DNA of 64,000 nt from an uncultured virus (IMG/VR IMGVR_UViG_3300042887_002087) (IMGVR_UViG_3300042887_002087:1-64000); one strand, 5' to 3'. Shown: positions 333-35,891, numbered from the stretch's first letter. Notes: generated from the sequence alone by a model not told the origin. Numbers and translations are program-made.

Positions 333-1010
333 TTATTTCTTCTTTTTACCCACGATTTCGTCGATGATACCATAGGATAGTGCGTCTTCAGCATTTAACC
401 ACAAATCACGAGTCGCATCGTTTTTAACTTGTTCAGCTGGTTTTCCACAATACCCACCCAATAATTCAAATAGGATATTATTAACTTTTCTCCACTCAAC
501 CATACTGATTTCAGCGTCTTGGATGTTTCCAACCGCTCCACCTGAAGATTGGTGTAACATTGTTTGGGAGAACCTCAACGAACCTCTTTTACCTTTGGTA
601 CCTGCACCTAATAGGACTGAACCCATTGAAGCTGCCATACCTGTATTGATGGTTCTAATGTCTGATTTGATATAATCCATTACATCTACCATAGAAAGAC
701 CTGACTTAACTGATCCACCAGGACTGTCGATGTGCATTGTAATATCGTTACTGTCGATACTGTCTAAGAACATTAACTGAGCCTGAACAATGGTGGACAT
801 ATGATCGTCTACACCACCCGCAACCCAAATGATACGTTCCATCATCAAACGTGAGAACACGTCCATAACGGTCACATTTAAGCTTCGTTCCTCTAAGATG
901 TAAGGAGTTAAACTGTTTTCTACTTTTTGATTGTAATAGTCCAATTTCAACGAACTAATACCCTTGTCTTTTGCATAAAGACCAAACTGTTGGTAATCTT
1001 TTGGTGTCAT
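333..1010 (-). CDS. clpP: ATP-dependent Clp protease proteolytic subunit
   Basis: MDVFSRLMMERII, IDSPGGSV, GMAASMGS (catalytic Ser), MLHQ (His), RDLWLNAEDALSYGIID. Confidence 0.95.
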   Translation of the reverse strand: MTPKDYQQFGLYAKDKGISSLKLDYYNQKVENSLTPYILEERSLNVTVMDVFSRLMMERIIWVAGGVDDHMSTIVQAQLMFLDSIDSNDITMHIDSPGGSVKSGLSMVDVMDYIKSDIRTINTGMAASMGSVLLGAGTKGKRGSLRFSQTMLHQSSGGAVGNIQDAEISMVEWRKVNNILFELLGGYCGKPAEQVKNDATRDLWLNAEDALSYGIIDEIVGKKKK

Positions 1011-12281: not shown

Positions 12282-13592
12282 TTAATCACAAGGACAAGTT
12301 ACGTTTGTAAATGATGAGAAGTATATTGCTGATGGATAGTTTGTTGCCATATAAGCACTATCTTTATTCGTGTCTATTCTTGAACAACATTCACTATTTA
12401 TCGTCACAAAACTTAAATTACCCGCACTATAATCTACATAATATATTGCTGTTAAATCACATCTCTCATACACATCATATGTTTGCGGTGTAGGAGTTGG
12501 TGGTAAAGGGGTTGAAGTTGGTGGTGCTCCTGAACAAGCTGTACAAGCTGTTTGTGCTGTTCCTGTTTGTGCCGAACCATCTCTCATAAATTCTCTTTCA
12601 TCAGTACCATCAGAAACCCAAAATGTAGTGTTATTAGTCATATCACCATACACGCTACCATACATTGTGGAAGATAAACCTTTTACTTTTGTTAAATTAC
12701 ATAAAGACGTACCTACAACCGTAATATTAACATTACTATATTCACCACCAGTACATGCTGTTGGTCCGTTAACTAAACTAACATAACCACTAAACGTAGT
12801 TTCAAATGGAGTTGGTTGTGGTGTTGCAGTTGCCGGTAAAGGAGTTGGTGTTGTAGGACAACTACAAGGCGTTGATCCATAAGATATATCCGTAATACTT
12901 GCACCAACTGCGAATAATGAACCATTTTGAATACAATCATTTATTACTTGTGGTCCAATACCAAATGTTAAATCAATTGTCTCACCGCAACAATCAATAT
13001 ATCTAATATCACCTCCCGTATCAACCTCAAATTGTACAGATGTTACACAATTAGGTGTTGGGGTTGGGGTTACAGTTGCCGGTAATGGGGTTACAGTTGC
13101 CGGTAATGGTGTTACAGTTGCTGGTAATGGGGTTACTGTTGCCGGTAATGGGGTTACAGTTGCTGGTAATGGGGTTACTGTTGGTGTATTTGTGGGAGTT
13201 GCCGTTGGTACAACTGTTGGTGTGGGAGTTGGTGTGGGAGTTGGTGTGGGAGTTGGTGTAGTCGGCATTCTTATAGTTAAATTATTATAATCAACACATT
13301 CCACACATATAACAGAGTCATCATCTTTTCCATTAAAATTTGATGGTATCACTCTAATTGTTTTTATTCCCTCGGGAACAACTACATATGTACCATTTAA
13401 ACTTGATCTTGGAATATTGGAATATCCAACTAAAGGAAAATATTTTGACGAGTCAGATCCTGAAAGGGATCCTGTACATAAGGATCCAGAATTGTTGGTA
13501 CAATCCTCTAAACTTCCCGTACAGGCATACAAATCAACATTTAATATTGATACTCCTAAAGTAAATCCTGTTAATCGTATTGTATATGACAT
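12282..13592 (-). CDS. Modular Pro/Thr-linker, Cys-rich virion appendage protein
   Basis: PT tracts, TVTPLPA repeats, Cys-rich modules shared with 21746..23878. Confidence 0.6.
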   Translation of the reverse strand: MSYTIRLTGFTLGVSILNVDLYACTGSLEDCTNNSGSLCTGSLSGSDSSKYFPLVGYSNIPRSSLNGTYVVVPEGIKTIRVIPSNFNGKDDDSVICVECVDYNNLTIRMPTTPTPTPTPTPTPTPTVVPTATPTNTPTVTPLPATVTPLPATVTPLPATVTPLPATVTPLPATVTPTPTPNCVTSVQFEVDTGGDIRYIDCCGETIDLTFGIGPQVINDCIQNGSLFAVGASITDISYGSTPCSCPTTPTPLPATATPQPTPFETTFSGYVSLVNGPTACTGGEYSNVNITVVGTSLCNLTKVKGLSSTMYGSVYGDMTNNTTFWVSDGTDEREFMRDGSAQTGTAQTACTACSGAPPTSTPLPPTPTPQTYDVYERCDLTAIYYVDYSAGNLSFVTINSECCSRIDTNKDSAYMATNYPSAIYFSSFTNVTCPCD

Positions 13593-13627
13593 ATTTCTAT
13601 AAATAGTATTATATAGAATTTAAACAA

Positions 13628-13653
13628 AAAACCCCTTAAAATAAAGGGGTTTT
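13628..13653. terminator. Bidirectional terminator-like hairpin
   Basis: AAAACCCCTT ... AAGGGGTTTT. Confidence 0.7.
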
Positions 13654-13675
13654 AATATTGTTTTGTTTTTAAATT

Positions 13676-14242
13676 TTATGTTGAGCAAACATTAATGTCC
13701 GTTACAAATCCACTTGCTGAAATTTGTCCTGTATATGTTGCAAATCCACTGTCGGTTCTATAATAAGCGTGATATTCATCCTCTCCACCATAACCACTTG
13801 TTAAACCAGCATCAGTAAAGAATTGTTCTACATTGGCTGCATTATTTGTTGCGGCAAATACTTCAGTTAAGAGACTTTGAGGTTCTCCACCACCACCAGT
13901 AATAGCAGCACAAGCCTGTCCAATATTCGATTGTGTAACTGATGGTCCTAATTGATATGAATATGATGTTACTACAGGTGTTGGACTCGGAGTAGGTGTT
14001 GGGGTTGCTGCTGCCGGTGTCGCCAGCCACGGGGTTGTAGTTGTACAAGTACCTGTACTTGCAATTGTTCCCCCTGTTATAGCATCATTAATACCGGTAA
14101 TTGTATGACCTGCTGTTAATTGGGCTTTTGTAATACCAGAGGCTAATTCTGATACAACGTTAGCATTTGTTGTTCCTGAAATATTAAACGGACCCGCTGC
14201 AGTTCCTGAGGATTCCGATTTTAATGTAAATGTTACTGTCAT
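13676..14242 (-). CDS. Small two-domain virion appendage protein
   Basis: Beta-rich N-domain ending STGTC, PT linker, C-domain homologous to the C-terminus of 14285..19336. Confidence 0.6.
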   Translation of the reverse strand: MTVTFTLKSESSGTAAGPFNISGTTNANVVSELASGITKAQLTAGHTITGINDAITGGTIASTGTCTTTTPWLATPAAATPTPTPSPTPVVTSYSYQLGPSVTQSNIGQACAAITGGGGEPQSLLTEVFAATNNAANVEQFFTDAGLTSGYGGEDEYHAYYRTDSGFATYTGQISASGFVTDINVCST

Positions 14243-14284
14243 ATTATTTGTTTCTTTTTATAAATATCTGTTTATTTTGTTTTA

Positions 14285-17200
14285 TTAAGGTTGTTCAGCA
14301 CAAACACTTTTGTCCGATACCTGACCAGTATATGAAATTCTTCCTGAATATGGTGATCCTCCACTATTTAAAGCGAATGAGTGATATTCATTTTCACCGG
14401 TATATACGTTTACTAAATTAGGATCTGTAAAGAATTGTTCTACATTAAATGGTTGATCTGCCGCCGCATATGCTAGAATATAGAAATCCTGACCGTAATT
14501 TTGACAAGCCAAACTCGATGATGTATAAGATGGTCCTAATTGATAAGCATACGATGTTGCAGGTACAGGTGTGTCTGTAGGTACCGGTGTTGCCGTTGGT
14601 GGGAATGGTGTTGGTGTTGGTGATTCTGTTGGTACGTTTGTTGGTACTGCTGTTGGTACGTTTGTTGGTACTGCTGTTGGTATTGCTGTTGGTACGTTTG
14701 TTGGTACGTTTGTTGGTACGTTTGTTGGTACGTTAGTTGGTACTGCTGTTGGTACGTTAGTTGGTACTGGTGTTGGTGTTGGTCCACAATATGTACAATC
14801 ACTTGATATGTTACAAGTATTACCACATTCAACATCAGTTAATAAACCTGAATTAATAATTGGAGCTGTTCCACCTTGTAGACAATGCTGTCTACTTGTA
14901 CCAGGTAATAAATTAATTGATTGTTCAGTTCCATTACAATTTGTTATTGTATAGTTTCCTGTTGTTCCACCTTCATTATAAATTGTCCAACATATACAAG
15001 GTAATGGTGTCGAAGTTGGTATTGCTGTTGGTACGTTTGTAGGTACTGCTGTTGGTACGTTTGTTGGTACTGCTGTTGGTATTGCTGTTGGTACGTTTGT
15101 TGGTACGTTTGTTGGTACGTTAGTTGGTATGTTAGTTGGTATGTTAGTTGGTATATTGGTTGGTTCTGGTGTATTAGTTGGGACCGCCGTTGGTACGTTA
15201 GTTGGTATGTTGGTTGGTATGTTGGTTGGTATATTGGTTGGTACTGCTGTCGGTACTGCTGTTGGTACGTTAGTTGGTAATGGTGTTGGTGTGCTGTAGA
15301 TAACATCAACATCAACATTAAAGTTACAATCTGGCGTTGGAGTTGGAGTTGGTGTTGTAGTGTTAGTAGGTGTTGGGGTTGGTGTATTTGTCGCTGGTAA
15401 TGGCGTAGGAGTTGGTGTATTTGTTGCGGATTCCGGTAATGGTGTTGGAGTATTTGTATTTGTTGGTGTAGGAGTTGGTGTACTATAGATAACATCAACA
15501 TCAACATTAAAGTTACAATCTGGTGTTGGAGTTGCGGTATTTGTTGGTGTTGGAGTTGGGGTATTTGTTGGTGTTGGAGTTGGGGTATTAGTTGCTAATT
15601 CTGGTGTATTTGTATTTGTTGGTGTTGGGGTTGGTGTTGGTGTACCATATATAATGTCCACATTTATTTCAAAATCACAATTTGGTGTAGAAGTTGGTGT
15701 ACTAGTTGGTGTTGGAGTATTTGTATTTGTTGGTGTAGGAGTTGGTGTACTATATACAACTAAAACATCAACATTAAAGTTACAATCTGGTGTTGGTGTA
15801 GGTGTTGCAGTGTTAGTAGGTGTTGGAGTTGGGGTACTATAAAATATTTCTACGTCAACAGCAAACTCACAATTTGGTGTGGCTGTTGGGGTTGGTGTTG
15901 GGGTTGGTGTACTAGTAACAACTAAAACATCAACTAAGAAATTACAATTTGGTGTAGGTGATGGAGTAGGTGTTGGTGTACTAGTAACAACTAAAACATC
16001 AACATTAAAATTACAATCTGGTGTTGGGGTTGGTGTTGGGGTTGGTGTACTAGTAACAACTAAAACATCAACATTAAAATTACAATCTGGTGTTGGGGTT
16101 GGTGTTGGTGTATTTGTTGCAGGTGATGCCGTTACTGTTGGTGTTGGGGTGGAAGGTAATGGTGTTGCAGTTGCTGGTAATGGTGTAGCTGTTGGTGTGG
16201 CTGTTGGTGTTGGTGTGTTTGTTGGAGTTGGTGTTGGTCCTGGCTCATATATCGCTAATCCTCCACTAAATCTACAATCTTTCACATCATTTTGACCAAT
16301 TGATACATATCCATAATCTAAATAATTATTTACTGTACAATCATTTGGACCGTATTTGTAAGATGTGAATTTAATTTTTTCACGTCCTTCATTATCTATG
16401 AAAAATTCATATGATATTATTTTTTGTTTTGTTGTTCCTGTAATCGATGAATTACCAATTTCGGTTCCGTATTGTGTGTTTTTACCTTCTCCATCTATAG
16501 TTGATCCAGAATAGGTGTTAATATATGTAATTGTATTTTGTATCGCCCTTTTCCACAGTATTTTTAATTGTTGGTCTATTTCACTATAAACCGAAAGGTT
16601 ATTAGTTGTACCTCCACTATATAATTTAACACTAATACCATTAGTTGTAACGGTATTATCGTTATTAAATGTTAATGTTGTTCCAGTTAATGAAGTTGCT
16701 CCACTGATTAAAACATATGTACATCCTGTAACATTTGTTGTTGTGTTTAATGCAGAAGCATTTTCAGGGTCAGTCATACCTGAATAAACTATACCGTCAA
16801 TTTCAAATATTGGATAAAGTTTAACATAACCATCGTGTTTTGTTTCCCCATCTTCATCAATTTCAATAGAAAAACCAAGATCATCGTCAGCCTGTTGTAT
16901 TAAATAATCAAAATAACTTGTAAATCCTGTTGGTATTTCTAAATCAAAATTAATGTGGTCTTCCGTTTCTGTAGGTTGACATCCATATCTATATTGATAT
17001 TTTGATCTACCAAAAATATTATTTGAAATTAAATTACCTCCCGTCCATAAAGTTGTTGCAGGAATAATTTGATCGATAACACTTGTCCAATAAGGACTCA
17101 TTTTTTCAATAAACAAATTAATGTCAGGAAATGTGTATGCTTTGTTAGGTGAAAAATCTCTAGTAATATAATCTTGATAGATGTCCTCTAATGTAATATA

Positions 17201-19336
17201 ATTCTTCTTATATTTTATTAAATTAGAATTTTTAATTTGTTGATGTATCATTAAATCGACATACTCAGCGAATGTTACTCCTGTTTGTGGTGTTAAACTA
17301 TTTGTACCGAATGTTGTACCTGTTGGACCAAAGTCTCTAGATTTACGATATATGTCATAATCAACCGCTTGTGCTGATGATAAATAAACTTCAATATTTT
17401 TTCTATTTAATAATAAACCAGAATTATCATTAAGATTTTCTGTTTGATTATTATCAATAATATTTTTTAATTTATATCCTGAGTCTAATCCTGGCAATTT
17501 TCTATAAACGTCAAAATAATCTTCACCATAGGTATATGCACTATTTTTAGTAACAATATTTTTAGTTCTTCCTGTTACCGTTGAATTATCGATATCAATC
17601 ACTAATGGTGATTTATGATCTGTAGTATTATCATACCAACCAGATCCTTTTTGGAAAAAATATTCTGTTGATCCCGTAATTCCTTTAGGTAATAACGTAT
17701 CTCCATTAACGGGATAATTTTCAGAATTAAATGTTGTTGTACCTGTAGTTATACCAGTATAATATCTATATGGAAGATATGTTACACCATTAATAGTTCC
17801 ACCTGTTGGTAAGAATATTCCTGTTTTGTAAGTTTTAGTTCCCGATATAACATCATAAATGTCACCTTTTAAATCAAATGATTTAGGTAAAGATATTACC
17901 TTGTAAACATATTGATTAATTTTAATCATTGGTTCAGGAGCACCTAAAAATCTTAAAAAAAATTCTAAAGATTGTCTTGTACCTTTTGATTTATAAATGT
18001 AAGCCAAGTTAACTAACAACCTTCGATAAAATTCATATTCGGCGTCTATTAAAGACGTTCCCGATACTAATCCAGAATATTGTTGTGATGTCTTAGTGTA
18101 TAATAATTCATCTAAACCTTTCTCATCAATTAAGTTAATTGTATCTAACCCTAAAGTATTTGCCAAGTTTTTTAACAATACATCGGGTACGTTATTAATA
18201 CCGTCATAACTTACATTTCTCATGTAAGCAATATTATCAATATATTTTTTTACACTATCAAAACTTTGTCCATATAATTGAAATAATGATTCGGCCTTTT
18301 TATCGGGACTATCAAATTCAAACAATTGAGGTGATGTTAAAAACCTAACAAATAAGTTAGACTTATAATCATCAATTTCATCTGCTATATTACTTAAATT
18401 TGTTAAATAACTATCATATTCTAAACCTGTAATTTTAATGTTCCAATCTTCCTTATCGGATAACGGCCAACTATAATTTACTGAAATTAATTCGGTTTTT
18501 GTTTCGTCAAAACTATCTCTTGGTACCTTAAAACTTGAAGTATATTTTGGAAAAGTGTCTCTGTTTAATAAACTTTCCTCTAAATCATCTAAACCTTTAA
18601 AGAACTCTTCAACAACACCATCATTTGGTTTAATTAATATATTTTCAGAAAACCCCGTTAAGTTATCAAATGGTTTACCACTTACCTTTAATGAAATTAT
18701 ATTATCACTATTAGGTTCAATATATGAAATTACATCATATGTTTTTCCACTTATTGAAATTAAATAGTTTTTAAAAGAAGTATAAAAATCTCTGTTTTTA
18801 TTAATTGAAGGTAATATGGTATTACTTTTCGGTGTAACCATAACAATCGAAAATGGATTGTATAGTTTACTGTACTCAACTTTAAATTGAGTGGTGTTAC
18901 TTATATTATCATATGTAATATTATTAGCGGTAAAATTCGTTACTTTAATTAAACTATTAGAATCAATTAAAATAGCCGCAGGAAAATTATTAATTATATT
19001 AGTTGTCGCAACACCTAGTCTACTTTTTAATGATCCAAATAAAGATTTAGCAGCATCATTTTTAGAACCTTTAAATTTTATTTCTTTATTTTTACTTGTA
19101 GTACCACTCGTAGTTGTACTTGAAGTTTGTCCTTTTAAATCATCTAATGTTAAAAAATTAGAAAACGGATTTGTTTTAAAATTCTTTGTATCTCTTTGTA
19201 TTACCTCACTATCTAACGCAAAGTTCGTATTAGTCAATTGACCGGTACCCGTGGTAATTTGATTACCGACTAGATTGTCACTGAATGTATCGGCACCACT
19301 CGCAGCTTGACTTGGAATTTTACGTAATTTTGCCAT
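14285..19336 (-). CDS. Baseplate wedge protein (P2 gpI-like core) with mucin-like repeat tail
   Basis: [14 protein letters not shown]...[21 protein letters not shown]-terminal ~600 aa of PT repeats and Cys modules. Confidence 0.7.
14627..15280 (-). repeat. 12-nt coding tandem repeats, PT(N/A)(V/I), in two blocks
   Basis: gttggtacgttt / gttggtactgct units at about 14627-14770 and 15014-15280. Confidence 0.9.
15290..16092 (-). repeat. Eight copies of P(D/N)C(N/D/E)FxVDVxVxxS separated by PT linkers
   Basis: Counted in the translation of 14285..19336; near-identical nucleotide units aacatcaacattaaa(a/g)ttacaatctgg. Confidence 0.9.
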
Positions 19337-20247
19337 TAGATATTAGTGATTGTATCAAAGTTTAAATTTTCATCAATATCATTACGGTTTTCTCTAACCT
19401 CATATAGAGTTTCGTTAAAGTTGTCTTTAATTTCAAATAAGTTATATTGTTTATAGATGTTATTATCTTTATCGTAAATTGTGTAAATACCTGGAGTAAC
19501 CGCCTTAGTTTGATTACCGTAAAGAGCATTTGCAAGTGTTGACGCATCATGTTCAACCATATCAATTTCGATAGTTGTTGGGTTCATATATGTATTTGAT
19601 AAAATAACCATTTGACCTGGACTACCAATAAATGGAACGGTATTTGGTTTGTTTGACGGTGCAGACGATGGTGTAATTGTTAAAAACATAAAGTTTGTTG
19701 CACCTTCACTATATTGATATCTTACTGACTTTTGTGTTGAACTATTTAGATTCGCCGTAACAGGAGTACAATAAAAAGAAGACGTAACAATTTTATAGAA
19801 ATTTGGTGTTTTTTGTTTGTTATTAGAATTTATATATTCAATCCTATAACCAACTAAACCTTGTGGTGTAAATTTATTTCTATCTTCAGACTTAACATTT
19901 GATAAATCCAAGATTAGTCCTCTTACTGATGGTAATGATGCTAAAACACCACAATCCATAATTGTTGTTCTAATTTGTTTTGGTCTGATATGAAGTGTGT
20001 ATATTCCTAAATCAGGAAAATCTGTTGCATTTAATTTAAGATTATATAAACCTCCTAAGATTTCCACACCACTTTCTCCACCGGTATTTCCATTATGTAA
20101 AATAGGTGTTAATACCTGATTTGGGGTTAATTTCTTTAATACTGTTGGAGTTGTTGAGATCCGATTGGGTGCATAATGATAAAGTATTTCTACATCATCG
20201 GGTGATACATCCGCCGGTCTAACTATTCCATATGATCCTACTGCCAT
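19336..20247 (-). CDS. Putative virion structural protein
   Basis: 303-aa beta-rich ORF in the baseplate operon with a TATTTATA motif upstream. Confidence 0.5.
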
Positions 20248-20271
20248 ATTCTTTTATTATAAATATAAATC

Positions 20272-21744
20272 TTATTGTTTTTTAACTTTAAAAAATCCAT
20301 TTCCATAAACATCTAACTCACTCATGTTGTCAATTTCACCCAATCTTAGATTAACCTCCATGACACCTTGACGTCCTCTTTCCACAAAAATGTCAGAATA
20401 TACTGTTGGGTCATCGATAAAACCTAAGAAATGTTCGTTTCTTGTTAACATATGATTTATAACATACTCGGTAGCAAATTCTGTTGTATTACCACTTGTT
20501 GTTAAATATGGTACAGTATTTATTGTGTTTCCCGATATTTCATATGTATAACCACTAGTTGGTCCAAACCTATAATTTGGAACACTTCCCGTTATTTGTG
20601 TAAATCCATCTTCTCTATCCATATAATATAAATCATCTACCGTATATCCTGTATACTTTGTTCCATCAGATAATGATCCTGAATCAACACCATAAGGTGT
20701 GGTTTCACCATATCTCTTAAATTCACCAATTCTGCTTTGACCTATTGCCATAAATTTAAATGTCTTTGTGGGTGTTGCAGTATATCCTGTGTTAGAATAT
20801 TCATAATCATTTAAATAATTTAAAGATCCTGTTATTTGTGTATATGGTATTGTAAACCCGCTAAATGTCCCTAATACATTAACATTATCAGTAATAGAAC
20901 CTGTATTAAAAATGGTTATGTTTTTAGTTATTTTTTGATTTGACCATGGAGAGTTTAAAAAAATTGATATATCAAAACTACTTATATTTGATCCCGAATA
21001 TGTTTCTTTATATGAACCTGTATATGACGATGTATATGGTGTATAATTAAATGACGCGGTTGGAAAATTTGAATATAAAACTCCTCCATTTGAATCTAAT
21101 GAACCTGTAATTGATAGTGATCCTGTTATATTTTGTTTAACTCCCCAATCTATTGTAAAATCTTGATCAACAATTTTTCTTAATTTATCAGGATTTACAG
21201 TACTATAAATCGTAACATGTGATCCTGATATTCTATATGTAAAATTAACTAATTGTTCTACTTGTTCCATATTTCCATCGAATGAAACCATAACACCCAT
21301 TTCATCCACATCCGATTCTAAATAAATTGGTATCTCATATTCATAACCCGTAAATCCCGTGTATAAATTCCAATTATCTCCATCCCATTTATAATATTTC
21401 CCCTTTGTATTGTTAATTGCAACTTGTTCAACCTCTTTCCAATATACACTACCAGATGGTATGTTATTTAAATTACTACCTGTTAATGATTGATACGTTT
21501 TACCACTATAAAATAAAACAACGCTTCCTGTGTATGTAATATCAGGATACCATTTTATGTCACGTACCAAATGTAAACTACCTGTCTCATTTGAAGACGG
21601 TACCATACCATCTATTGGGACTGACGCACTATACCAAGATTTCCAATCGTTTATTTCTGTATCAAACCAAAAAGTACCAGTTTCTGAATGTAAATTAACA
21701 TCAGGTATCTGTCTTTTTAATATTGTATATTCGTTTTTTTTCAT
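20272..21744 (-). CDS. Putative virion protein with one CBM5/12-like module
   Basis: KWYPDITY...FYSGKTYQSL...NLNNIP...YW; strong TGS/SGS enrichment. Confidence 0.55.
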   Translation of the reverse strand: MKKNEYTILKRQIPDVNLHSETGTFWFDTEINDWKSWYSASVPIDGMVPSSNETGSLHLVRDIKWYPDITYTGSVVLFYSGKTYQSLTGSNLNNIPSGSVYWKEVEQVAINNTKGKYYKWDGDNWNLYTGFTGYEYEIPIYLESDVDEMGVMVSFDGNMEQVEQLVNFTYRISGSHVTIYSTVNPDKLRKIVDQDFTIDWGVKQNITGSLSITGSLDSNGGVLYSNFPTASFNYTPYTSSYTGSYKETYSGSNISSFDISIFLNSPWSNQKITKNITIFNTGSITDNVNVLGTFSGFTIPYTQITGSLNYLNDYEYSNTGYTATPTKTFKFMAIGQSRIGEFKRYGETTPYGVDSGSLSDGTKYTGYTVDDLYYMDREDGFTQITGSVPNYRFGPTSGYTYEISGNTINTVPYLTTSGNTTEFATEYVINHMLTRNEHFLGFIDDPTVYSDIFVERGRQGVMEVNLRLGEIDNMSELDVYGNGFFKVKKQ

Positions 21745-21745
21745 T

Positions 21746-23878
21746 TTAGCACTGTTCTGATGATAATCCTGTTATTTGTCCTGTACTATTATTAATATCC
21801 CACGTTTCTCCATTAATTTGAACATATTCGTATCCTATCAAAGCATTAGGGAATGTATCAACATATACAAAGCATCCTGTTGTAAAATCAAATGGTCCAC
21901 AATCAGAATAGAATGTTCTATTATTTGATGCGTCATTACAAACTCCACTAAATGTATTTCCTCTACCACAACCTGTATATGTTGTTAAAGGTATTGTAGT
22001 TGCTGTTGGAGTAGGCGTTGGTGTTGAACCGCCAGGAGTTGCTGTTGGCGTTGCGGTTGGAGTTGCAGTTGGCACACCTGAACAAGAGGTACATGCTGTT
22101 TGAGCTGTTCCTGTTTGTGCCGAACCATCTCTCATAAATTCTCTTTCATCAGTACCATCAGAAACCCAAAATGTAGTGTTATTAGTCATATCACCATATA
22201 CGTTACCATATATTGAAGAAGATAAACCTAATACTTTAGTTAGGTTACATAATGAAGTACCTTGAACTGTAACAGTCACCGCCTCATATTCACCACCACT
22301 ACAAGCTGATGGACCATTAACTAAACTCACATAACCACTAAATGTAGTTTGGAATGGTGTTGGAGTTGGTGGTAAAGGAGTTGGTGTTGCAGTTGGTGGT
22401 AAAGGAGTTGGTGTCGCCGTTGGTGGTAAAGGAGTTGATGTTGGTGTTGGTGTTGCGGTTGATGGAAGACATGACGTTTCACCATAAAACACAGATGAAA
22501 TTGACGCGATTACTCCTGATAATGAATTATTTTGAATACAATCATTAATTACTTGTGGTCCAATACCAAATGTCTCCGTAACTTCACTACCCTCACAATT
22601 AAAATATCTAACAGTTCCACCAAAATCAACTTCAAAACTTACTGACGTTACACAAGGACTTTCTGTAGGTGTTGGGGTTATTGTAGGAATTACCGTAGCC
22701 ACTGGTGTAGGTGTTGAAGTTGGGAAAGGTGTTGACGTTGGTCTAGGTGTCGCCGTAACTCCACCAATAGGTGTCGGAGTTGGGGTTGATACCGGTAATA
22801 ATACTCCTCCTCCTTTTTCGTAGAATGTTATACTATCAGTCGTTGTATAACCTGTACCTATTCTATCTAATTTTGTTGTCCCCGTATATCTATATATTTG
22901 ATATGTTCTTTCATAGTGATCAAAATCAATTTGATAATACATATCTTTTTCTTCCGTTATATTATAACTTGTTGTTTGACCTGAATTTATAAAATCTAAT
23001 ATCTCACCTCTATCCGCATTGAAAAATTTTGCTGTCATGAAAAACGTATTCATTCCGTGATAAAATGGTGATTTATTATCATTTGGGTTTTTTATAATTT
23101 CATATGTTAAATTTGGATATTGAAATGTTTGTCCCGTCCAACCAATTAATGTGGTACCTGTAGTACCTGTAGTTATTGGTATGTTTACTTGTGTTATATC
23201 GTTATTTTCATTTGTAAATAAAATAGTTTGTTCCGTTGTTGCGGTAAAACTATACATATCTAATGTTGTAGTTCCACTTAAATTAGTATCTGTTAAAACA
23301 CTCTCATTATCAAACCAAAACAAATACATATTTTCTTTGTTTCGATAATTTGAACCTGTAAAAACAGGTACAAATATATTATACCCATAGTTACTACCTG
23401 TATGAAAATATTTTTCACCTAAGGGTAATGCTAAATTTTTAGAATTTATTAATCTTCTATTTTGTCTTGTCGGTGGCTCACATGTTAAAACATAATTTGT
23501 TATACTACCGGGTGTTTTATAAAACTCTAATCTAAAGAAACTTTCAGTTGATTGTTTTGTCATCAATTGATTTTCTTGTGTTGATATACCAACAGGATTA
23601 TAATCTAAAACATAATTTGGTGTGTCTCCACTTGTTGCAAAATAAAATTGAAACCATATGTCAGTTTGTGTAAAATTAGGTGGGTAAGTGTTTCCCGTTA
23701 CAATATATGGTTTATGAATGTATCTAACTGTTTCATAATTTTTAGATGGATTAATAATATCTTTTAAAACTTCATCTTCAAAATCGGCAAGATTATCCTG
23801 CCAACCCAAATCGGTTCTAAAACTTTGTTCACTATTAACTACAATATTTAAATTGTTACTATTTTTTAAAATTTCCAT
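21746..23878 (-). CDS. Virion protein with C-terminal PT linkers and Cys-rich modules
   Basis: Two modules homologous to those of 12282..13592. Confidence 0.6.
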   Translation of the reverse strand: MEILKNSNNLNIVVNSEQSFRTDLGWQDNLADFEDEVLKDIINPSKNYETVRYIHKPYIVTGNTYPPNFTQTDIWFQFYFATSGDTPNYVLDYNPVGISTQENQLMTKQSTESFFRLEFYKTPGSITNYVLTCEPPTRQNRRLINSKNLALPLGEKYFHTGSNYGYNIFVPVFTGSNYRNKENMYLFWFDNESVLTDTNLSGTTTLDMYSFTATTEQTILFTNENNDITQVNIPITTGTTGTTLIGWTGQTFQYPNLTYEIIKNPNDNKSPFYHGMNTFFMTAKFFNADRGEILDFINSGQTTSYNITEEKDMYYQIDFDHYERTYQIYRYTGTTKLDRIGTGYTTTDSITFYEKGGGVLLPVSTPTPTPIGGVTATPRPTSTPFPTSTPTPVATVIPTITPTPTESPCVTSVSFEVDFGGTVRYFNCEGSEVTETFGIGPQVINDCIQNNSLSGVIASISSVFYGETSCLPSTATPTPTSTPLPPTATPTPLPPTATPTPLPPTPTPFQTTFSGYVSLVNGPSACSGGEYEAVTVTVQGTSLCNLTKVLGLSSSIYGNVYGDMTNNTTFWVSDGTDEREFMRDGSAQTGTAQTACTSCSGVPTATPTATPTATPGGSTPTPTPTATTIPLTTYTGCGRGNTFSGVCNDASNNRTFYSDCGPFDFTTGCFVYVDTFPNALIGYEYVQINGETWDINNSTGQITGLSSEQC

Positions 23879-29732: not shown

Positions 29733-31562
29733 TTAAAATGTAGCCGTTCCTAATGTTTTAACCCTAACTTTAATATCTTTATTTGGGAATCTAATTTGGA
29801 AGATTTGATTTGACTTCATAAAGATCATATTATCGGATTGATTTATCAATCTAGTGTTTTGATCTGTTGTTTGTGATGGCTCCGCAGATGAATACTCACC
29901 TCCTATTTTACTGTAAACTCTTGTCTCAATTACATTTATCACACCTGATACGCTACCTACGATTTTGTTTAAAGCACCGATAAACAAAGGATCACCCATT
30001 TTACGTTTTTCTATTGCAAAATGTTCAATTGTATCCTGAATTACCGTTTGTATGATATCCGTCTGATTTGCGTTTTTATCTATGTTTAAATCAATTTCTA
30101 ACCCCATATCGATGACTTCACCACTTACAATATCCAAATAGTCATTAATCATTTTATATTCCGTAAGATAGGTTAAAATGTTCGATTTTAGTGTATAAGA
30201 AACAGTATCAGTTAAATTACCTTGGTCGTCATATGATAATAATTTAATTCTAATCTTATTATCTTCCTCCATAACATTAACCTTAGCTGGTGCTCCGTAT
30301 GTTGATGGCATCGTTTCAATTAATGATTTATAATCATTTAATGTAACCGCCCTATTTTGTGCTGCAAAGTTATATGAAACCATATTACGAATTTCTTCGA
30401 TTGTTGGTTGGTCCGCACCACCTACTGCAGGTGTTATGTTATTAACTCTAAGTGATTGTACCACACCAGTATTCTTTGCTGGCACAGGTCCTGAAACTAT
30501 AAATTCAACATCATCTACGTTTGTAATTACATTCACCCCTAAGTTACTATCTTTACCACCACCCACACGATATTGTACAAATAATGTTGTATTAATTTTT
30601 GGTGTAGTTCCTAATGATAGATTATTTAAATAACTCGCCAAATTAACTTTCAATTGTCCTGTCATATAGTTGTCCAAATTGTCTAATGGATTAACTGTAC
30701 CCGAACCAAATGTTAATGAAAAATAACCTTCAGGTGTATATTCTGTTATGAATTTATTATTAACAGGTAAAAACGTTCCTGCGGTAAAATTATTTGTATC
30801 CGATACAGACGTTGGGTCTGGCACAAATACTTTATCTTGAATTAATGATTTAACCTCATACCATTTGTTTGAGGTATTAGAAAATTCATTTGATGTTGGA
30901 TTACTTGTAAAAGTTGTACCGTCCTTATGAATAACAGATGTTACTCCTAATACGTTTTGTTCGGGTAAGTATAATTTTAAGAAAGGTTTTTGATCCGCTT
31001 GGTTTATAACTCTTCTATAAATTTTTGTTATACCATTTACAACAGGTTCTCTTTTTGTAATTGTATAAGATATTAATCTATTATTTACATCAAAATTTGG
31101 TATCTTTAATCTATTAGGTTCTCCTTTTTTATTAAATGGAACAGAAAAATCAATATCATCAATTGTTTCAAAAACTTGACCTCCTCCTGAAACTTGAGCA
31201 CCACTCTTTAATATACCCAAATATCTAACATCTTCTTTATCTCCTCTAACATCCACAGTAATTGAAAAATCACATAATGCAACTGATGGTCTAACTCCTG
31301 GTAATCTAATACCATATGTTTTTGCAATATGATATAATGATTGTCTTTGTTGTGCAAAATCCAACATAGTTTCCTGCCAAACTCTATCAATGTGAAAGTG
31401 TAAGTTATCCGCAACCGCGGCATTAATATCTAATAACACCGAATAAATCGATGCGTCGTTAAAATTTTTAACTAAATCAGGATAGTAATTTTTAGTTAAT
31501 GTTACTAATTCATTTCTTAATCCCTGAAAATCTCTTGTTGCGTATGATATCTGTTTACTCAT
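29733..31562 (-). CDS. Baseplate wedge protein (T4 gp6 / baseplate J-like)
   Basis: YATRDFQGLR, YRVGGG, GGAD..TIEEIR, AQNRAVTLNDY. Confidence 0.9.
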   Translation of the reverse strand: MSKQISYATRDFQGLRNELVTLTKNYYPDLVKNFNDASIYSVLLDINAAVADNLHFHIDRVWQETMLDFAQQRQSLYHIAKTYGIRLPGVRPSVALCDFSITVDVRGDKEDVRYLGILKSGAQVSGGGQVFETIDDIDFSVPFNKKGEPNRLKIPNFDVNNRLISYTITKREPVVNGITKIYRRVINQADQKPFLKLYLPEQNVLGVTSVIHKDGTTFTSNPTSNEFSNTSNKWYEVKSLIQDKVFVPDPTSVSDTNNFTAGTFLPVNNKFITEYTPEGYFSLTFGSGTVNPLDNLDNYMTGQLKVNLASYLNNLSLGTTPKINTTLFVQYRVGGGKDSNLGVNVITNVDDVEFIVSGPVPAKNTGVVQSLRVNNITPAVGGADQPTIEEIRNMVSYNFAAQNRAVTLNDYKSLIETMPSTYGAPAKVNVMEEDNKIRIKLLSYDDQGNLTDTVSYTLKSNILTYLTEYKMINDYLDIVSGEVIDMGLEIDLNIDKNANQTDIIQTVIQDTIEHFAIEKRKMGDPLFIGALNKIVGSVSGVINVIETRVYSKIGGEYSSAEPSQTTDQNTRLINQSDNMIFMKSNQIFQIRFPNKDIKVRVKTLGTATF

Positions 31563-31563
31563 C

Positions 31564-32016
31564 TTATATGTTTAAAATTATAAAGTCGGAAGTTGAAAAT
31601 GACCCGTTATTAACTGTATATTCTATTTTAACTACCGCCGTATATGGTTTTGTCGATTCATCAGAAACCCTAAATAATCTTTCATCTTCATCTTGTGCAA
31701 TACTTCTTTGTCGATTTGGATCATCTTCGGCGGATGTTATAGATATATTTGTAATATCTAAGTTTGGTATGAATTTTTTAACTCCTTCTCTGATTTCTTC
31801 TTCAATTAAATTATATGTAATTGCGTCATTTTGATCAAAAATATATTGATATATTCTTGTTCCAAAATCAGGTAAGTAATATCTACTACCTTTTCTTGTT
31901 AAAATAAGGTGTATAAGATTGGCTCTAATCTCCTTTTCAGGGATTTCAGTCATATTAAGATAATCTCCTTTAGGACTATCTCTAAATGGATAATCAATAC
32001 CGTACGTTACTGCCAT
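31564..32016 (-). CDS. Baseplate wedge protein (gp25/GPW family)
   Basis: LILTRKGSRYYLPDFGTRI; start set at MAVTYG. Confidence 0.9.
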   Translation of the reverse strand: MAVTYGIDYPFRDSPKGDYLNMTEIPEKEIRANLIHLILTRKGSRYYLPDFGTRIYQYIFDQNDAITYNLIEEEIREGVKKFIPNLDITNISITSAEDDPNRQRSIAQDEDERLFRVSDESTKPYTAVVKIEYTVNNGSFSTSDFIILNI

Positions 32017-32046
32017 ATTCAATAAATATAGATAAACCTAAAATGG

Positions 32047-32220
32047 TTATGTATCCTCTTTTATTTTTGAGTTCCCTTTTATAATATGTGGGGGGTCATA
32101 AGGACAATTTGCGCATCCATTGGAACAACAATGTCCTCTCTTCTGTAAAAAAAGAGAAGTCAGAACCATAAGCCCCGACTTCTCATCTATGTAATAATCT
32201 ACTCCTTCCTCTAATTTCAT
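32047..32220 (-). CDS. Small Cys-rich protein, DUF5522-like (57 aa)
   Basis: Hand-translated: MKLEEGVDYYIDEKSGLMVLTSLFLQKRGHCCSNGCANCPYDPP...; start overlaps the RNR stop (TAATG). Confidence 0.8.
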   Translation of the reverse strand: MKLEEGVDYYIDEKSGLMVLTSLFLQKRGHCCSNGCANCPYDPPHIIKGNSKIKEDT

Positions 32221-34481
32221 TAGATACTTGTCACATCACATTGTGCTCCACTACAAGATTGTGCCGCATAATCGGAAATACTCTTGTATTGTGGTTTATC
32301 TAAAATTTCACCGAAGTTTACTTCTTTGAATTGACGAGTAATAGTCTCCCACTTATAGAATAAATGAACGTCTTTTAAACAATAAACCATCTTCTTCAAA
32401 TCACCTTTAAAGTAATTCTTCGCAAATTTCTTCGCTCTTGAGATCCAATATTTCTTTAATAAGACTTGTTCTCTTGTTCCTGTAATTTGTATTGAATCGT
32501 CTAATAAAGTATCTGTTGCTAACCATAAGTTTTGATTAAAATAATGTAAACCATCAATAATCAAACCAGATGCTAATACCGAACCTTTACCATATACCTC
32601 AACTAATTCGTCAAGATTTAATACTGACGTAAATGGCGCTTGATTGAAATCTTTATCTCCGTAGTCTGACATGAAACTAACCGCAGTAAATAAATCTCTT
32701 TGTTCCCAAATATAATCAACAATTGCATCTTTATCGTCAATAATAACTGTACAAGATGTATTATGATTTACCGGCATATAAGCACATAACTCAGGATTAG
32801 TTCCAGCATTTACCCAATGTTGTTGAACCAACTTAATTAACTCAAGGTGTTTAATACCTTTCATATCTTTTTTGAATAAACCAACTTTTGGATTTTCAAC
32901 AGGAACGAATACAACATAATCTGATTTAGTTGAAGACCATACACTTTCTTCTAATAAGAAAGCCATATTTTCTTCTAACCATTTTGCAGTGTTACTTTCT
33001 TTATTTAACTGCATGATACGGAAATACTTTTCAGAGTGTTCAGGGTGAATACCTGATGCAGTTCCTAATACAACTGACGCATTACCTGAAGGTTTTACAC
33101 AAGTAGTTCTTGCCGCTTGGTTAATTCCAATTACCGCTGCCAATTCTTTATTAGCATCTTTTACGGCTTGTGCTCCTTCTTCTAATAATTCAGCATTAAA
33201 TAATTTAGGATTATTCATCCAACCTGTAATACTAACACCTAACAAAGCTTCTCTTTCAAAGATTGCTTTACTTGTTTCACCTAAATAAGGAAAATTAGTA
33301 TAACCCGCTTGTAATGTTCCTAAGAAAGAAGCATCTTTACATGCCTTTAAAAACTTTTCTTTTGTTGTTGCCTTCTCAGCATTGATCTCGGTTAAATTAC
33401 AACCTTGAATACCGAACTTAGATTTGTTGTCTTTAACATATTGTTCAACTTCATCATATTTGATTTTACCAAAATCAATTGTATCTAATACAGGGATTTT
33501 CATAATCTCAAAACATGGATTAAACATATCAAACCAACTGTTCGCAAAAACAAAACCAATATCATTTGCTCCGTCATTTAATTGTACCAAGTAATTGAAT
33601 TGTTCTTTAACAACTTCACTTCTCAATAAAATAACTGAGTTATTACTACGACCTCTTTGTGGGTTTTCTATTCTCCAATTACCTGTCTTAGCGTGGATCA
33701 TCTCATCATCATTAGGATCAACGATCATATTCAACGCTGAACGTCTAACACCACCCGACAATACTGCATCCGCTGAGTGACAAATAATATCAAACGCTAA
33801 GATAGGACGAATTTTTTCTCCTTCATTAGTTAACCACTTTTCAATTAACGATTCTATTTTTTCTAAAGATTGTTTTAAACCATCAGGACCAGGTGCTTTA
33901 AAACCACCGCTGATGAATGAACCTTTCTCACGAATTAAAGAATAATCTAATTTAACTTCATAACCTGCATATTCAGGGAATGGTTGTTCGTCAACAAAGT
34001 AAGATGATAACAATACACCCAATGCGTTTGCCCAACCTTCAATTGAATCTTCAATATAAAAAGTTTTAGTCCCTAAAGTTCTTTTTTGAATTCTACTTAA
34101 ATTATTTACAAAAGGAGTTAATAATCCTCCACCGAATCCACAACCAGATAATGCCAAGTAAAAAATCTCTTGGAATACTCTATTACGTGCAATGTGTCCT
34201 GATGTACAGTTAAACATTCTCGTGTTATGTTTCATAATTTGTTCGTGTCTGTATTGTAAGTTTCTTTGTGAAGCTAATACAGCTTGATCTTTCATACTCT
34301 CAACGGCAGATTGTAAATATGGTTCAATTGCCTCAGCATAATCCACATATTTTTTTCTGTGTCCGTCAATTATGTTCTCACACGCGTCTTCCCACGTTTC
34401 ATATCTTTTTTCATCTTCCTTCCATTTGAAATAGTCTGAGTGTAACTTTAAGTCACTCAGAAATTTTTTACCTTTCTGCAT
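32220..34481 (-). CDS. nrdJ: Ribonucleotide reductase, class II (adenosylcobalamin-dependent) type
   Basis: FNC, SGGVRRSA, NPCFEI, GCNLTEIN, TTCVKPSG, C-terminal CSGAQC; no beta subunit nearby. Confidence 0.8.
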   Translation of the reverse strand: MQKGKKFLSDLKLHSDYFKWKEDEKRYETWEDACENIIDGHRKKYVDYAEAIEPYLQSAVESMKDQAVLASQRNLQYRHEQIMKHNTRMFNCTSGHIARNRVFQEIFYLALSGCGFGGGLLTPFVNNLSRIQKRTLGTKTFYIEDSIEGWANALGVLLSSYFVDEQPFPEYAGYEVKLDYSLIREKGSFISGGFKAPGPDGLKQSLEKIESLIEKWLTNEGEKIRPILAFDIICHSADAVLSGGVRRSALNMIVDPNDDEMIHAKTGNWRIENPQRGRSNNSVILLRSEVVKEQFNYLVQLNDGANDIGFVFANSWFDMFNPCFEIMKIPVLDTIDFGKIKYDEVEQYVKDNKSKFGIQGCNLTEINAEKATTKEKFLKACKDASFLGTLQAGYTNFPYLGETSKAIFEREALLGVSITGWMNNPKLFNAELLEEGAQAVKDANKELAAVIGINQAARTTCVKPSGNASVVLGTASGIHPEHSEKYFRIMQLNKESNTAKWLEENMAFLLEESVWSSTKSDYVVFVPVENPKVGLFKKDMKGIKHLELIKLVQQHWVNAGTNPELCAYMPVNHNTSCTVIIDDKDAIVDYIWEQRDLFTAVSFMSDYGDKDFNQAPFTSVLNLDELVEVYGKGSVLASGLIIDGLHYFNQNLWLATDTLLDDSIQITGTREQVLLKKYWISRAKKFAKNYFKGDLKKMVYCLKDVHLFYKWETITRQFKEVNFGEILDKPQYKSISDYAAQSCSGAQCDVTSI

Positions 34482-34514: not shown

Positions 34515-35891
34515 TTACTTTCCAGCCACTTGTTGTCTCCTTTTAAATGCTTCCGCCGCTCTATTAGCATTTATCTGAACTTTTTGTTCTTCGTGTCCCA
34601 ATAATGTATTTTGAGACTCTGTATCAATAAGAAGAAACTCGTTATTGAATTTACAGTTTTGGAATACAACACCATCTCGACCAATACGAGATTTTAATAA
34701 TGTAAGAGTTGCTAAGTTATGATCTTTTTGTTCTAATGTTTTACCAATAGATAATATAACGTGTGCAATTTGTGCTTTCTTAATTGACCCACCCATTTGA
34801 TCTCCAGTTACTACTTCACTTGAAATTGATTCACGGTTACCTTGTGTTGCCGTCCATATTGCCATTTCAAATTCTCCTGTCATTGATTCTAAACTTCTCA
34901 TAATAGAACCTTCACCTTTCCATTCTTCACCATTAGCTGATTTATCAGTTGAAATACAATCTACATAATCTATTACTAATAAATCAACTTTTTTAGTTCC
35001 ATCAGAATTCATCTTTCTGATTTTATTTTTAATCTCAGAAACTGTAACATTATCACTTGCTAATTTTAATAATTTTAAACTACCTTTAGATTTAGCTTGA
35101 GCTTCCTCTACTTTAGCTTTAACTTCTTCTTTAAATTCAGGTTGACTATCAGGTGCAATCTCAGTCCAAATCGTATAGTGTTTTCTTTTAATATTACCCG
35201 GATTATCTTCAAAGAAAATCTGAACGACATTATAACCTAAGTTATATGCGGTGTTAGCGAACTTAGTAAGTAAGGTAGTTTTACCAGTACCTGTGGGAGC
35301 TAATACAACCCCCAATTCTCCGATCCCTAACCCACCTTTAAGTAAGTTGTCAATTCCCACAATACCTGTCGGTAATGGGTGTCTAAAGTCCTTTTCTAAC
35401 GCTCCATCAATATCATGGAATACATCCGTCGCTTCATCATTTGAAATACCAACTTGTAATGCCTTTTGGATAATTTCCTCAATCTTATTGTAAGCCTCGA
35501 ACTCACCACTTTCAATAATACTCTGTACACTTTTTAACTCTCTTTTCAAGTTTTGTTGTTTACAAAAATTAAGTGCGGTATCTTTAACATACTCAATTTG
35601 AGAATCATTATTTTTAATTGCTTCTAATGTATCTACGTGAATTTTAGAGGAATCTTTGTTACCACCTTCAGCCATGATTTTCTGTGCCAATGTATTGTAA
35701 TCAGGAATTTTATTGTAATTCTTATACAACTCCTTTGTATTTTCCATAATAAATCTAAATGAGTTATTATCAAAAAATTTACTATCTAATACATCAATAA
35801 TTGTTTCTCCATACTTCTTATCTTCAATGATCGCTTTAATAAGGGATTGTTGAAACGAAAACCCCAAATACCCAAAATTCCTTTCTTCCAT
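34515..35891 (-). CDS. Replicative helicase (DnaB / T4 gp41-like)
   Basis: APTGTGKT, VIDYVD, WTATQGNR, KSRIG. Confidence 0.92.
   Translation of the reverse strand: MEERNFGYLGFSFQQSLIKAIIEDKKYGETIIDVLDSKFFDNNSFRFIMENTKELYKNYNKIPDYNTLAQKIMAEGGNKDSSKIHVDTLEAIKNNDSQIEYVKDTALNFCKQQNLKRELKSVQSIIESGEFEAYNKIEEIIQKALQVGISNDEATDVFHDIDGALEKDFRHPLPTGIVGIDNLLKGGLGIGELGVVLAPTGTGKTTLLTKFANTAYNLGYNVVQIFFEDNPGNIKRKHYTIWTEIAPDSQPEFKEEVKAKVEEAQAKSKGSLKLLKLASDNVTVSEIKNKIRKMNSDGTKKVDLLVIDYVDCISTDKSANGEEWKGEGSIMRSLESMTGEFEMAIWTATQGNRESISSEVVTGDQMGGSIKKAQIAHVILSIGKTLEQKDHNLATLTLLKSRIGRDGVVFQNCKFNNEFLLIDTESQNTLLGHEEQKVQINANRAAEAFKRRQQVAGK

Follow-up and report, generated by a model that had tools for sequence, protein, structure and literature searches.

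The DNA considered here is a 64,000-nucleotide stretch from an uncultured virus (IMG/VR IMGVR_UViG_3300042887_002087, 1-64000; hereafter the window), and the element at issue is a short, Cys-led peptide unit that recurs eight times along the stalk of a large virion protein. The gene for this protein of 1683 amino acids (aa) is an open reading frame (ORF) on the minus strand at 14285..19336. Its product falls into a conserved body (aa 1-1032; 16241..19336), a Pro-Thr stalk delimited by sequence segmentation (aa 1033-1444; 15005..16240), and two terminal modules closed by cysteines, the first with eight Cys residues (aa 1445-1517; 14786..15004) and the last with two (aa 1592-1683; 14288..14563). 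A scan of viral contigs brought up 203 relatives of the body; 80 of them were kept (L001-L080), and across these the body is 51-100% identical, with many invariant alignment columns. Directly downstream lie the genes for two smaller proteins, p188 and p436, whose relation to the stalk units is a central question below.

The stalk bears exactly eight units that match the pattern P[DN]CxFx[VI][DN]Vx[VI][VIF]x[SG]. Units 1 to 4 lie at aa 1083-1096 (16049..16090), 1106-1119 (15980..16021), 1129-1142 (15911..15952), and 1154-1167 (15836..15877), and units 5 to 8 at aa 1183-1196 (15749..15790), 1218-1231 (15644..15685), 1272-1285 (15482..15523), and 1335-1348 (15293..15334), all on the minus strand; their Cys codons fall, in the same order, at window positions 16084, 16015, 15946, 15871, 15784, 15679, 15517, and 15328. 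Each unit is 13-14 aa long and has a single Cys, a Phe two residues on, and Val or Ile at alternate positions, giving an amphipathic beta-strand with a hydrophobic face (F, V, V, V), a polar or acidic face, and one free Cys. On either side of every unit lies a spacer rich in Pro and Thr, 10-50 aa in length, and the distances from one unit to the next run 23, 23, 25, 29, 35, 54, and 63 aa.

Such a series goes far beyond what chance would give. When the residues of aa 1033-1360 were shuffled 2000 times, the core pattern matched on average 0.0115 times and never more than once, and a six-frame search of the whole window with the same pattern returned 16 matches, namely the eight units and eight scattered singles. 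A preliminary description of the locus, made from the DNA alone, had spoken of eight units of about 13 aa with one Cys and alternating hydrophobic residues, isolated by Pro-Thr linkers and too short to fold alone. The first part is borne out by the eight matches, and the second is supported as well. Structure prediction adds little here: the AlphaFold2 (AF2) model of aa 800-1365 has a mean predicted local distance difference test score (pLDDT) of 42.8, too low for use, and although it draws five of the eight units as paired strands, it does so at low confidence, and we do not count this as evidence.

The character of the unit becomes clearer among relatives. A first hidden Markov model of the strand missed divergent variants and was replaced by a loose pattern, for which ORFs on the opposite strand served as control; it matched 554 times in 717,414 aa of coding-strand ORFs and not once in the 255,831 aa of opposite-strand ORFs. 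The consensus of 141 units from 26 distinct proteins reads T-P-[DN]-C-[NL]-F-[DN]-V-[DE]-V-x-V-[VI]-T-x-T-P. While the Cys was fixed by the search pattern behind this consensus, the Phe at +2 is present in 141/141 units even though the pattern permitted F, L, I, or V; Val or Ile stands at +4, +6, and +8, and acidic residues are conserved at +3 and +5. That Cys and Phe are invariant and the Val/Ile positions nearly so, in proteins whose bodies are 51-57% identical and whose DNA differs, shows that the peptide is under selection. A profile built from two-unit segments matched 26 proteins among 1.84 billion representatives, 24 of them true carriers, and the element is therefore rare and lineage-specific.

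The number and spacing of units, on the other hand, are free to vary. The stalks of big-protein relatives bear from 0 to 11 units, and relatives of 89-91% identity can differ by one (8 versus 7). Because unit number and linker length change between such close relatives, a fixed globular fold built from all eight strands was rejected. Spacings of 23 aa are the most frequent (89 cases), ahead of 29 (44 cases) and 33 (19 cases), and in six cases the strands abut (spacing 11). Among arrays of at least five units, the spacing grows from N- to C-terminus in 33 of 35. The N-proximal units are the most alike, identical and closely spaced, and the distal ones are diverged and separated by longer linkers. 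Given units nonetheless retain their own variant at equal rank between relatives, as does unit 4 of the window, whose variant recurs at the same rank in L003.

These gradients invite the reading that the strands have no pairing role at all. The array would then be a passive by-product of the tandem duplication of a body strand together with its linker, and its units would serve as spacers or as local stops to folding or proteolysis. The array does contain tandem repeats at the DNA level, with periods of 69, 87, and 162, and the widening seen in 33/35 arrays, from close and identical units to distant and diverged ones, fits a process of birth and ageing. Yet mere duplication does not account for an invariant Cys and Phe and near-invariant Val/Ile where the surrounding body and DNA have drifted, and we consider a purely passive repeat improbable.

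Two observations bear on where the unit came from. The closing strands of the conserved body open with DC (DCTV..., DCRF...), as the strand unit does, so that the unit looks like a copied body strand. Moreover, in a distant clade (L034, L076, L059, L118) the strands stand directly behind a folded domain, head to tail and with no linkers between them.

Nor is the unit confined to one protein. At least five kinds of carrier are found, namely the big protein, proteins of types D, E, and F, and p490-like proteins, which makes the strand a general stalk part and not the feature of one scaffold. Carriers of types D (768 aa in L041, 549 aa in L024, 651 aa in L035), E, and F each start with a small N-domain of their own, and in four loci (L106, L110, L115, L117) the big protein is strand-free and neighbouring proteins bear the strands. 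In a 211-kb record that matches the window, every match to the strand profile lies in the big protein. The preliminary description had treated the repeats as belonging to a single scaffold, a view that does not survive the finding of strands on fibre proteins with small N-domains of their own. We regard it as settled that the unit is a stalk element under selection and belongs to a system of modular adhesins.

Some strand-free relatives carry stalk-like sequence of another sort. In L065-L075 (about 14336..22699) and L023 (14333..22546) there are proteins of 2737-2787 aa in which Pro and Thr make up 68% (L065-L075) or 52% (L023) of the residues, threaded behind a small N-domain as giant mucin-like tethers.

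The modular nature of the system is apparent in the two genes downstream of the big protein, both on the minus strand. The first, at 13676..14242, encodes p188, which consists of an N-domain designated type A (aa 1-78; 14009..14242), a Pro-Thr linker, and a two-Cys module (aa 93-188). The second, at 12282..13592, encodes p436, with an N-domain of a different type, type B (aa 1-110), a long Pro-Thr linker, and three Cys-rich modules. The ORF sequences thus bear out the earlier account of both proteins as N-domain, linker, and Cys-rich module or modules. The C-terminal module of p188 and the last module of the big protein belong to one family (43% identity, E 7e-15), a third copy of which is part of a protein of 1063 aa at another place in the 211-kb record; the eight-Cys module of the big protein has kin in L018 and L009, within their type A proteins (39% identity). 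Module 1 of p436 shares 63% identity, and module 2 85%, with modules of a 710-aa protein of the fibre cassette (21746..23878, minus strand). The module identities of 43%, 63%, and 85% support the proposal of a system of conserved N-domains, Pro-Thr linkers, and interchangeable Cys-closed modules.

Each of the two genes also has its own TATTTATA motif on the minus strand, as had been described, at 14259..14266, 16 nt before the ATG of p188, and at 13598..13605, 5 nt before that of p436; between the genes lies a terminator-like hairpin of 10 pairs with a T-run (13628..13653, minus strand). The motif is not enriched in the window (15 found, 19 expected). Of its 11 minus-strand copies, eight sit 3-42 nt before an ORF of at least 100 aa, the sheath gene included (6163, 12261, 13598, 14259, 20258, 51823, 53733, and 58559; the others are at 294, 9433, and 40896). 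This placement resembles that of late promoters in T4-type phages, and TATTTATA is a candidate late-promoter motif of the phage group.

The type A domain itself is predicted with confidence. The AF2 model of p188, computed with 91 sequences, has a mean pLDDT of 89.9, and within it the N-domain (pLDDT 74-95) comprises six strands and one helix in an FN3/Ig-like sandwich with a single Cys, C66, in agreement with the one Cys noted before. Alignment to whole FN3 domains covers 70-75 aa at Z scores of 6.0-6.4 and root-mean-square deviations of 2.3-2.8, though a Z below 8 may mean only a common arrangement. Foldseek found nothing in the PDB for the p188 model at E <= 0.001, and the N-domain had no match among GenBank phages. 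Matches of the model in BFVD were to uncharacterised phage proteins only, the best being from uncultured Caudovirales, Virus NIOZ-UU157, and Cellulophaga phage phi17:1, which gives a faint hint, at the level of a predicted model, of a Bacteroidota host.

Homologues of the type A N-domain number 305 of similar length and 29 longer, and the cargo behind the domain is varied, with small Cys modules at one end and VWA domains at the other. Many of the longer type A proteins (P0132-P0158; L113 9983..11497) bear VWA-like cargo, with PF00092 recorded for P0156; such cargo suggests protein- or metal-dependent adhesion besides glycan binding. Exactly one Cys is found in the type A domain of 148/149 proteins, the total number of Cys residues is odd in 127/149, and none of the 149 bears a strand itself.

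According to a docking reading, which narrows the proposal of the preliminary description to p188, the strands are tags: each would add at the edge of the FN3-like type A N-domain of a p188-type protein and be locked to it by a disulfide between the two cysteines, the result being a branched, multivalent display. In its fullest form this would be a natural tag-and-catcher system, in which one small gene decorates every stalk with many swappable modules, a cellulosome-like array for host recognition made by beta-strand addition; we find this arrangement rather unlikely.

The informative set for this question comprised 24 strand-bearing, non-redundant loci and four strand-less ones. Exactly one type A gene is present in 23/24 of the former and in 0/4 of the latter; in the remaining strand-bearing locus (L015) the strands are divergent, and so is the A-like gene that goes with them. 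On a tree of the body domain, 3/3 independent contrasts are concordant, strands going with an N-terminal type A domain, though a sign test on three contrasts gives p = 0.25 and is not significant. When 10 strand-less records (25-76% complete) were searched whole, with a positive control run alongside, an N-terminal type A gene was absent from all 10. Approached from the other side, 39 further loci reached via type A have strands within 10 kb in 33 cases; of the six others, four are cut by contig ends, one (L118) has two strand-like segments by eye, and one (L126) does not hold a true type A domain. Docking is the only reading that explains both this co-occurrence and the unpaired Cys, and the diversity of the cargo, the promoter-like motif and terminator that p188 has to itself, and the free variation of unit number and spacing, as would suit independent sites, also speak for it.

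That said, the co-occurrence has another possible source. The type A gene usually lies beside the strand carrier, and one recombination can therefore remove both. Counts do not follow either: a single type A gene stands against 2-19 strands, the 211-kb record also has just one copy, and across the 24 loci the strand count of the big protein is unrelated to how many N-domain genes a locus has (rho -0.05, p 0.80), contrary to the idea that repeat number tracks client number. Strand variants and type A sequences, compared by eye, show no co-variation, the type A domain being highly conserved and the strands variable.

The structure of the domain is a further difficulty. The preliminary description had the client N-domains completed by a donor strand, and this part finds no support: the p188 domain is predicted, at a pLDDT of about 85-95, to be a confident, self-contained fold, and a type-A-like domain that has three Cys residues sits inside proteins of 854 and 1230 aa from strand-free genomes, between Pro-Thr or Pro-Ser linkers (L132 553..3117; L134 1..2766, minus strand), so that the fold is autonomous and needs no donor strand. 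Taking these points together, we hold docking to be a possible but rather unlikely function of the strands.

As for p436, we regard it as settled that it is no client of the strands, because its type B domain is unrelated to type A and is present in the strand-less relative L012. Loose similarity had been ascribed to the N-domains of the two downstream proteins; BLASTP gives an E of 14 and profile-profile comparison with hhalign a probability of 0.3%, so the likeness does not hold up. Type B is instead kin to type E (97% probability by profile comparison), and type A may, on the same kind of sequence evidence, be kin to type C (69% probability), which likewise occurs with a strand-free big protein (L042, L047). 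Co-occurrence with the repeats is seen for N-terminal type A genes, found in strand-bearing genomes only, and does not hold for type B.

A partner might also be sought outside the fibre proteins. The strands are exposed, repeated, and amphipathic, and they sit on flexible tethers; they could bind a host surface protein or a glycan-bound structure in the manner of a tandem beta-zipper, or else the sheath or baseplate of the virion. The gp6-like wedge protein, too, has one strand-like segment, LCDFSITVDV, near its N-terminus. It lies at window position 31274 on the minus strand, within the gp6-like gene (29733..31562), and L107 retains it in its own gp6-like protein. Sites of host contact evolve fast, whereas the core of the unit is strongly conserved across phages with differing distal modules, and nothing positive supports an outside partner, a reading to which we attach very little likelihood.

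We favour over docking the reading in which sister or neighbouring stalks pair with each other and the strands are the nodes, and assign it a probability of roughly 0.4. The adhesins are built like beads on a string, with an N-terminal part as anchor, tethers of Pro and Thr, and small Cys-closed modules that can be swapped. Most phage fibres are trimers, and in an oligomeric carrier the identical strands of the sister chains would lie side by side as one another's nearest partners. Such strands could zip into short beta-sheet knots, and in oxidising water these knots of the virion might be stapled through the Cys or might hold a metal with the help of the neighbouring Asp. Floppy Pro-Thr tethers would in this way become a registered stalk of adjustable length that bears the binding modules, while p188 and p436 are, in this reading, separate small adhesins, each with its own late-type promoter motif, attached to the virion by their conserved N-domains. 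Self-pairing is put first because the strands occur on many carriers, because in the distant clade they abut folded domains and one another, and because they resemble the last strands of the body. The retention of a unit's own variant at equal rank is likewise expected, since each node would pair with its own copies.

Several points weigh against self-pairing. The oligomeric state is presumed for every carrier, and the model of the stalk, at its mean pLDDT of 42.8, is unreliable. The acidic residues at +3 and +5 would repel each other in an in-register stack unless a cation bridged them. Strand counts (4-11) show no preference for parity, and simple intrachain disulfide pairing is therefore unlikely. 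Finally, pairing among sister chains leaves unexplained the confinement of N-terminal type A genes to strand-bearing genomes, as well as the unpaired Cys of the type A domain in 148/149 proteins and the odd totals in 127/149.

Comparison with known systems helps to place the locus. Phage receptor-binding proteins can be modular, those of T-even phages, gp37/gp38, for example, pairing a conserved N-terminal anchor with exchangeable distal domains. The present system is similar in having conserved N-terminal parts, distal modules that are shuffled between genes and relatives, and a small adhesin gene directly downstream of a big fibre gene. It differs in its Pro-Thr tethers, small Cys-closed modules, and Cys-led strands, and no sequence or family match was found. 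To our knowledge, the combination of Pro-Thr tethers, small Cys-closed modules, and Cys-led strand repeats has no counterpart.

The cellulosome scaffoldin (a cohesin-dockerin system) likewise combines Pro-Thr linkers with modular cargo and with sites repeated along a single chain. Its sites are modules of 150 aa, as against a unit of 13 aa here, no cohesin or dockerin match was found, and the number of sites bears no relation to client types in the count comparison given above. The donor strand of chaperone-usher pili offers a parallel for strand complementation: alternating hydrophobic residues are present in the 141 units, and the type A domain is an Ig-like candidate partner. The resemblance ends with the acceptor, which in those pili is short of its last strand and unstable by itself, since the candidate here is predicted to be complete and stable alone, with 70-75 of its 78 residues aligned to whole FN3 domains. 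The Pro-Thr composition of the stalk recalls the PT/PTS linkers of cellulases and mucins (PF04886), to which it has a weak match of 20.8 bits, under the gathering cut-off of 26.2; the stalk differs in the ordered, one-Cys strands that it contains at graded intervals.

Branched receptor-binding proteins offer a parallel to docking in phages. In a Klebsiella podophage, a conserved docking peptide goes with a branching domain (PMC13352976), and gp10-like domains are reported from tailspike complexes of Ackermannviridae (PMC11414711). In both, a secondary adhesin is described as joining the primary one by means of a small domain and a conserved peptide of short length, as docking would have it here; the peptide is on the client and the domain on the scaffold, whereas here the peptide is repeated on the carrier. 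Neither the big protein nor its family profile matched a gp10-like or branching domain in Pfam, PHROG, or PDB sequences.

Indeed, neither the single sequence of the big protein nor its family profile found any family in those three collections, a Pfam scan of 19 family members gave no match, and tblastn against GenBank phages was equally negative. ESM Atlas scores were all <= 0.84, and a 12% Baseplate_wedge lead at 0.75 was treated as no evidence. At E <= 0.1, the seven proteins of the locus that were scanned against Pfam gave only the weak PT repeat and a weak DUF4811. The strand element, too, seems to be undescribed: no Pfam or PHROG family covers it, and no paper on Cys-led strands in Pro-Thr stalks turned up among those that could be searched.

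The genome around these genes is AT-rich (GC about 30%). Pfam matches in the window include tail sheath, tube, T4 baseplate, gp32, a RecA/UvsX-like protein, a DnaB-like helicase, and ClpP, and PHROG baseplate wedge matches identify a gp25-like gene (31564..32022) and the gp6-like gene. The closest GenBank phage relatives of the sheath protein are just 28-36% identical. The source is an uncultured, distant T4-like myovirus, and the locus is part of its baseplate and fibre cassette. Gene order agrees with a T4-like baseplate and fibre cluster: on the minus strand, downstream of the wedge genes, come ORFs of 1205, 722, 710, 490, and 303 aa, then the 1683-aa protein, p188, p436, and a conserved 707-aa protein. 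The earlier label of the big protein as a baseplate protein goes back to this order, with the gp25-like and gp6-like genes upstream; because the protein has no family relative in Pfam, PHROG, or PDB, the label is a reading of gene order only.

A ribonucleotide reductase gene (32220..34481) lies between the DnaB-like helicase (34515..35891) and the wedge genes, and a ClpP protease gene (333..1010) is found at the start of the window. The L001 record that matches the window spans 211,168 bases and is classed by IMG/VR as a provirus of 63% completeness; the window's own record has 75,240 bases.

The architecture of tail fibres determines the host range of phages, and the clade of uncultured T4-like phages in which these stalks occur is large, with the 203 relatives of the big protein and 305 type A N-domain proteins noted above. 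If the strands do tie stalks together, disordered linkers would in a new way be made into a fibre whose length can be adjusted. Should they instead be docking tags, they would constitute a natural coupling of peptide and domain, of use in protein engineering and in the retargeting of phages.

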